DNA of 5,117 nt from a virus (lineage: Duplodnaviria > Heunggongvirae > Uroviricota > Caudoviricetes). The stretch is taken from IMG/VR virus record IMGVR_UViG_2684622618_000022; one strand, given 5' to 3'. Both the position numbers and the translations under genes were made by a program. The notes beneath the pieces were generated by a model, which worked only from the letters and a program-made list of their open reading frames with translations, had not been told where the DNA came from and ran no database searches. Positions 642-871 of this stretch are shown piece after piece (position 1 is the stretch's first letter; the number at the start of each line of letters is the position of its first letter).

Positions 642-824
642 TGAGAAACCCTCTGTTTCCCCTTAACGCCGGGGTAGCGGAACAAAAAACTGCTGCATAG
701 TTATTAAAGTTGAACCCTGCCGTCATGTTCATACGCCTCGGGCTGGCTACTTAACCCCTGACCACTGCCGGGTAACTCGAAGTATTTCCCTGCGTTCTGT
801 GGGGCGGGGTGGGTTGGTATTTTT

Positions 825-852
825 AGTTTAATAAACATTAAACTTAAGTCAA
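825..852 (-). promoter_or_regulatory. Candidate leftward sigma70 promoter (pL/OL analogue): -35 TTGACT (complement of 847-852), 16-bp spacer, -10 TAAACT (complement of 825-830)
   Basis: Minus-strand sequence acTTGACTtaagtttaatgtttatTAAACT. It shares acTTGACTtaa plus gtttattaaac with the rightward promoter at 1838-1869 in inverted orientation, so it looks like a duplicated promoter/operator module. Confidence 0.35.
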
Positions 853-871
853 GTAAAAACTAAACCGCGGG

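Follow-up and report, generated by a model that had tools for sequence, protein, structure and literature searches.

Whether the gap beyond the toxin gene of a cryptic prophage carries a second, leftward promoter with its own operators, as OL/pL does in phage lambda, is the question raised by this locus. The window, i.e., the whole stretch of DNA that was analysed, is 5117 bases long, and its positions 600-2250 are a 100% match to many E. coli O157:H7 chromosomes. Judged by this identity, the window corresponds to the part of CP-933P (Sp12), a cryptic lambdoid prophage of E. coli O157:H7, that carries the immunity and replication functions.

The gene map follows the annotation that RefSeq gives for L001, a near-identical locus (2 mismatches and 1 gap relative to window positions 1-2299), supplemented with family scans. 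On the minus strand lie a ydfC homologue (1-212, from the L001 RefSeq annotation), cut by the window edge and the first recognisable leftward gene; the toxin gene parE2 (937-1215; PF05016, E = 1.9e-16, and the L001 annotation); the antitoxin gene paaA2 (1217-1408; PF21217 PaaA2, E = 1e-19); and the leaderless repressor gene paaR2 (1429-1800), the CI analogue, placed by annotation, by its N-terminus MQKKE, as published, and by the primer F-1-PaaR2. The plus strand carries a zinc-ribbon gene of the ECs_2282 family (306-506; L001 annotation; NF047912, E = 1e-15), ydaS (1898-2200; PF15943 and HTH_3), which is the Cro analogue, and ydaT (2197-2589; L001 annotation and family scans). To the right of ydaT are O-like and DnaC-like replication genes. 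A run of 50 N at 2300-2349, inside ydaT, replaces 83 bases present in L001, so that the ydaT frame in the window is artificially 11 codons short. Further right in the same prophage, the sok antitoxin RNA is found beside hokD (L001 11899-12073, plus strand).

Promoters and operators on both sides of the repressor gene

The initial annotation described an inverted second copy of the rightward promoter/operator module to the left of the toxin gene, based on several shared words. All of these words are present. One of them, ACTTGACTTAA, extends to the 12-mer TACTTGACTTAA, which forms an inverted repeat between 844-855 (minus) and 1837-1848 (plus). These are its only 2 matches in the window, even when 1 mismatch is allowed, and at least 2 matches occurred in 0 of 200 dinucleotide shuffles. 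GTTTATTAAAC (GTTTAWTAAAC) is found at 826-836 (minus-strand reading) and 1851-1861, and 1912-1922 differs from it at one position; at least 3 matches were seen in 0 of 200 shuffles. The motif AACTAAAC is also there, although at 858-865 and not at 857-864, one base from where it had been placed. There are four copies of ACTAAAC in the window, starting at 859, 1823, 1862 and 1881. The pairwise alignment of 815-870 with 1801-1897, proposed as a check, gave a best local score of 17, compared with a shuffle mean of 8.4 (sd 1.3). That score was reached in 1 of 2000 dinucleotide shuffles, and the similarity is above chance.

A scan for sigma-70 promoters detected TTGACT-16-TAAACT reading leftward (852 to 825, minus) and TTGACT-18-TAAACT reading rightward (1840-1869, plus), both directed outward. 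The -35 hexamer of the left promoter, pL (PL933P), is TTGACT at 847-852 (minus), inside the 12-nt word common to pR, and its -10 hexamer is TAAACT at 825-830 (minus) after a 16-nt spacer. From the usual 7-nt distance, its start is predicted near 818. The corresponding pR hexamers are at 1840-1845 and 1864-1869 (plus). Simple inverted duplication of pR was dismissed as an account of the left site, where the shared blocks are 7 nt apart versus 2 nt on the right. The promoter spacers (16 versus 18) and the origin of the -10 hexamers in different operator half-sites also count against a plain inverted copy.

The operator has been described as a palindromic consensus with the half-site GTTTAGTAA (PMC8630535). 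When every 18-mer of the window was scored against this published consensus, 4 in 5.1 kb reached at least 14/18, divided equally between OL and OR. The OL pair consists of GTTTAATAAACATTAAAC (826-843, 14/18), overlapping the pL -10 hexamer and spacer, and GTCAAGTAAAAACTAAAC (848-865, 14/18), overlapping the -35 hexamer and containing the ACTAAAC at 859-865. The OR region (1801-1897), with pRM and pR, has its operator 18-mers at 1812-1829 (16/18) and 1851-1868 (15/18). The OL operators are therefore of the same sequence type as those of OR, and they overlap promoter hexamers. Published EMSA and DNase I footprints cover the 97-bp OR region only (PMC8630535); the primers FL1 and FL2 map to window positions 1878-1897 and 1801-1822. 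We infer repressor binding at OL from the published reporter data, and the exact boundaries of the OL operators given here are putative. An additional operator-like site is seen within the first ydaS codons (1909-1929), where GTTTATTAAAT occupies 1912-1922 and scores 12/18 to the consensus. Together with pR positions 1844-1864 it makes a 21-nt inverted repeat (86%), and it may serve as an extra site for PaaR2/YdaS beyond the pR start.

Analogues of lambda pL/OL in CP-933P were asked for by Jurenas et al. (2021, mBio 12:e02947-21, PMC8630535). A promoter beyond parE2, with the -35 and -10 elements of PR933P, was described there and named PL933P, together with operators OL1-3. A PL933P-gfp fusion was repressed ~100-fold by PaaR2 (the CI analogue) and by YdaS (the Cro analogue); 5' RACE was reported for paaR2 and ydaS only. 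PL933P is past the 3' end of parE2, despite the published wording, which puts it 'upstream of the RAE2 locus'. The primers F-PL-SacI and R-PL-BamHI have exact matches at 916-936 (minus) and 819-840 (plus). The cloned reporter fragment (819-936, minus, read leftward) therefore includes the promoter/operator core at 819-865, and its end at 819 nearly coincides with the predicted pL +1. Identity with the published element was judged by these primers; the two are the same sequence, with no substantive difference. The flagged site is PL933P/OL, correctly read as an OL/pL analogue and already known. The fusions with and without repressor that had been suggested as a further check were also in print, with a positive outcome. 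Sequence similarity is shown by the comparisons above, and promoter activity with repression by both regulators by the reporter work (PMC8630535). The site itself adds nothing new, since the 2021 work had already predicted, named and tested it, and it follows a textbook lambdoid design.

A chance likeness of two AT-rich intergenic stretches, with no regulatory meaning, is extremely improbable. The GC content of the two regions is indeed low (0.27 and 0.31), and short A/T words recur easily in such DNA. The half-sites of OL taken alone are only modestly enriched, with 4 observed against 1.06 expected, a number reached by 54 of 2000 shuffles (p ~0.03). However, the exact 12-nt word and the alignment score are beyond what the shuffles produce, the resemblance of OL to OR is also found in other immunity types, and the published repression of this exact fragment refutes a chance origin (PMC8630535).

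Positions 819-865 are thus very probably the PL933P/OL early-left set of CP-933P, shut by PaaR2 or YdaS and driving a leader and then ydfC-dicF-dicB-exonuclease-xis. The sigma-70 promoter pL (TTGACT-16-TAAACT, minus, start near 818) faces away from the paaR2-paaA2-parE2 operon. Two 18-bp sites with half-sites of the type GTTTAGTAA/TTACTAAAC, as at OR ~1 kb off, overlap its -10 and -35 hexamers. In a lysogen-like state PaaR2 would bind the OL sites and keep pL off; in the opposite state YdaS would do likewise. PaaR2 on 826-865 is expected to block RNA polymerase at both hexamers. Once derepressed, pL would transcribe the 160-nt leader, cross the zinc-ribbon gene in antisense and head toward ydfC-dicF-dicB-exonuclease-xis.

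The site could instead serve mainly as an auxiliary operator, either an anchor for octamer looping that tunes pRM/pR or a roadblock, with its promoter activity incidental. PaaR2 forms octamers in solution, the prophage is cryptic with a frameshifted integrase gene (L001), and the first minus-strand ORF of notable length (285-641) is likely to be spurious, the real gene being on the opposite strand. All of this would suit such a role. It is nevertheless judged very unlikely, because the fragment is a strong repressible promoter (PMC8630535), because intact leftward ydfC, DicF, dicB, exonuclease and excisionase genes lie downstream, and because all relatives examined keep a promoter here and not operators alone.

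Operator pairs in related phages and the lambda design

As a control, the OL side (the region from leader to repressor gene) was compared with the phage's own and with foreign repressor-cro intergenic regions in 7 heteroimmune phages of the Rac/Qin type that share the leader. The own OR was the row maximum in 6 of the 7, one of which ties with a phage that looks to be of the same immunity type; the exception is L004, whose OL is not closest to its own OR. In a RacR-type phage, OL and OR share a word of 21 nt, within which the -35 hexamer falls. The comparison with related prophages, also proposed at the outset, bore out the OL/OR reading: OL mostly fits its own OR better than foreign ones, and its operator sequence co-varies with immunity type.

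Contigs of the PaaR family that carry the same PaaA/ParE cargo have repressors just 41-74% identical to PaaR2. The match of OL to its own OR is clear in 3 of 5 PaaR-family loci, and the remaining two have related operators. In these loci OL and OR have diverged in step, a sharper outcome than among the heteroimmune phages. For example, the OL of L096 reaches 23 with its own OR and no more than 10.5 with any foreign OR, and for L020 the values are 18.5 and at most 8. The operators of the L001/L081/L005 group are related, so that own and cross scores overlap.

A more distant example is Klebsiella phage 5 LV-2017, whose PaaR2 homologue is 45% identical and which is without the toxin-antitoxin cargo. 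Downstream of its repressor gene, GTTTAGTAATGATTAAAC is an inverted copy of its OR site, and outward promoters (TTTACA-18-TAAACT and TTGACG-18-TAAACT) are found on the two sides of the repressor gene. Its OR sites are 39 bp apart, the spacing of 1812 and 1851 in the window. Together with the PaaR-family loci, these data indicate that repressors of this family conserve a layout of two operators in which an operator half-site incorporates the -10 hexamer TAAACT. Beyond what has been published (PMC8630535), pL/OL as an inverted near-copy of pR/OR can be considered general across heteroimmune Rac/Qin-type phages and PaaR-family repressors.

PaaA/ParE pairs (65-97% identical) have been detected in the IMG/VR contigs L081, L096, L101, L116 and L020, each with its own OL and OR. 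Since similar cargo is found behind diverged repressors, the toxin-antitoxin pair and the repressor-operator set appear to have been swapped independently. L081 has ~460 nt extra between the repressor gene and paaA.

The arrangement in CP-933P, with pL at 852 to 825 (minus), parE2-paaA2-paaR2 at 937-1800 (minus) and OR/pR at 1801-1897, resembles that of lambda in several respects. The repressor gene, together with the cargo transcribed along with it, is bracketed by two operator/promoter sets; both promoters face outward, the CI-type and the Cro-type regulator each repress them, and pL is separated from the cargo by a hairpin. In contrast, neither the repressor nor the operators are related in sequence to those of lambda, the CP-933P operators being 18 bp long with GTTTAGTAA half-sites, and PaaR2 is without a LexA-type cleavage domain. 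The cargo is the ParE/PaaA2 toxin-antitoxin pair, whereas in lambda it is rexAB (cI-rexA-rexB). The N gene and nutL of lambda were not found in CP-933P by annotation or RNA family searches.

The two designs also differ in scale, the OL-OR distance being ~2.4 kb in lambda and ~1.0 kb in CP-933P. With the OL centre at ~845 and the OR centre at ~1840, the separation is ~1.0 kb in the window, compared with ~0.55 kb in the Klebsiella relative. Looping between the two operators is proven for lambda; for CP-933P it is hypothetical. PaaR2 is octameric in solution, and looping is mentioned by Jurenas et al. only as motivation (PMC8630535). A literature search on PaaR2 looping found no looping study and returned only that paper, and a paper on RacR (PMC11879457) makes no mention of a left operator or of looping. 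PaaR2 octamers could bridge OL and OR over ~1 kb. If true, bridging across the toxin-antitoxin cargo would make expression of the addiction module depend on loop formation.

The leftward unit

The initial annotation proposed a repressor-controlled early-left transcript over unidentified genes at 1-641. The outward-facing pL agrees with this; not all of these genes are leftward cargo, since 306-506 is the zinc-ribbon gene, convergent with pL. In L001, the genes that follow, all leftward, are ydfC, DicF RNA, dicB, a DUF1482 gene, an exonuclease gene and an excisionase gene. DicF is placed at L001 5002-5053 (minus), between ydfC and dicB, with an Rfam score of 76.7 bits. Genes for a division inhibitor, recombination and excision thus lie in the leftward unit. 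The window scan called no minus-strand intrinsic terminator between 818 and 1, from which a continuous transcript from pL into ydfC-dicF-dicB can be inferred. Identification of the downstream unit as ydfC-dicF-dicB-exonuclease goes beyond PMC8630535, and through it derepression of the switch is linked with the small RNA DicF and with a division inhibitor.

Close parallels are with the dicA/dicC-dicBF region of Qin and the racR region of Rac (on its leftward ydaG-ydaF-kilR-recET side). These have in common with CP-933P the conserved leader, the downstream order ydfC, DicF, dicB, ydfD-like gene and exonuclease VIII, and a repressor gene at the same position; the 21-nt word common to OL and OR of the RacR-type phage is a further likeness. 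Given the same leftward gene order, the early-left unit corresponds, by analogy, to the dicBF operon of Qin and the early-left operon of Rac. Repressor family and operator sequences differ, and no toxin-antitoxin pair separates pL from the repressor gene in Qin and Rac.

The zinc-ribbon gene at 306-506 is a real gene, antisense to the pL transcript. It is 29% identical (E = 4e-11) to its homologue in the Klebsiella phage, and both CxxC motifs are kept. The gene is convergent with pL in the window and in the Klebsiella phage alike. Relative to L001, it has a nonsense change (GAA to TAA) at 345, an allele that several other E. coli genomes share (100% identity). A weak terminator-like structure, a G-rich hairpin followed by a T-run, is seen on the plus strand at 793-811, just before pL; it could halt rightward transcripts of the zinc-ribbon gene ahead of the operator region.

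An ORF of 118 aa on the minus strand (285-641) is antisense to the zinc-ribbon gene and codon-aligned with it, and has been annotated as a CDS in phages Evi and vB_EcoS-640R1. It was rejected as the first gene of the pL transcript: it has no family match and no alignment to the Klebsiella counterpart, and the gene antisense to it is conserved. The missing family match and Klebsiella alignment make it a probable shadow ORF.

Between the parE2 stop and pL, a hairpin with 22-nt arms that are 82% complementary occupies 872-918 (minus). The RNA fold has an energy of -24 kcal/mol (z = -3.9) and is without an adjacent U-run; relatives have canonical terminators at the equivalent position. This hairpin is probably the terminator of the paaR2-paaA2-parE2 transcript and would be the positional analogue of lambda timm.

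The conserved leader

From the predicted pL start, a conserved non-coding leader of ~160 nt extends over 654-818 (minus). It is 75-97% identical in phages with unrelated repressors, including Tritos, vB_EcoS-640R1, -689R5 and -666R9, the RacR-type phage -683R6 and an Actinobacillus phage. Copies were located in L003 (4001-4159), L004 (4001-4172), L006 (3501-3665), L007 (3501-3655), L008 (3501-3660) and L009 (3501-3655). When viral contigs were searched for a 19-nt core word, the leader turned up at more than 120 loci. Across 109 unique viral leader copies, conservation is ~0.5-0.6 in the promoter, rises to ~0.9 from ~815 and drops at ~654, and the copies adjoin 83 different operator-side 80-mers. 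The mosaic boundary between immunity modules is thus the pL start point, followed by the strongly conserved leader.

The leader was not matched to any Rfam family, either in a scan of the window at gathering thresholds or in a search of 560-960. The only matches to known RNA families near the site were meaningless sub-threshold ones of miRNA type on the 872-918 hairpin. Covariation gave no support to a conserved fold of the leader RNA: an alignment of 8 leader sequences had 0 compensatory pairs; with 83-87 unique sequences the consensus fold varied with the alignment, and 5 compensatory pairs were counted versus at most 4 in slid controls. A conserved leader peptide was rejected, as the ORF from the internal ATG stops after 6, 18, 52 or 78 codons in different phages.

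The strong conservation of this segment raises another reading of pL, namely that it drives only a short non-coding RNA (~818-654) that acts alone, e.g., as a regulatory RNA, with no long operon behind it. Conservation of the 160-nt leader far exceeds that of either flank, no ORF in it is conserved, and its C-rich, G-poor 5' end might suit Rho loading. However, no minus-strand terminator is called after the leader, neither an Rfam match nor covariation supports an RNA family, and the downstream gene order is that of classical early-left operons. A short RNA acting alone is accordingly judged very unlikely, and an early-left promoter that reads through the leader is preferred. The start point and extent of the pL transcript are themselves deduced from the promoter and terminator calls.

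The leader of such a transcript could function in antitermination, in Rho loading or as a recombination joint between modules. A lambda-type N/nutL system was looked for, and no N-like gene was annotated or detected and no RNA family matched at 560-960. In place of N/nutL, the leader could act as an antiterminator that is RNA-based and processive, or as an attenuator that loads Rho. A literature search on antitermination in dicBF returned only PMC8630535. Taken jointly, the proposals that the leader is an undescribed cis-acting element of the early-left region and that PaaR2 octamers bridge OL and OR are tentative and on the unlikely side. Among the three points that go beyond PMC8630535, the leader boundary is the only one that could lead somewhere new.
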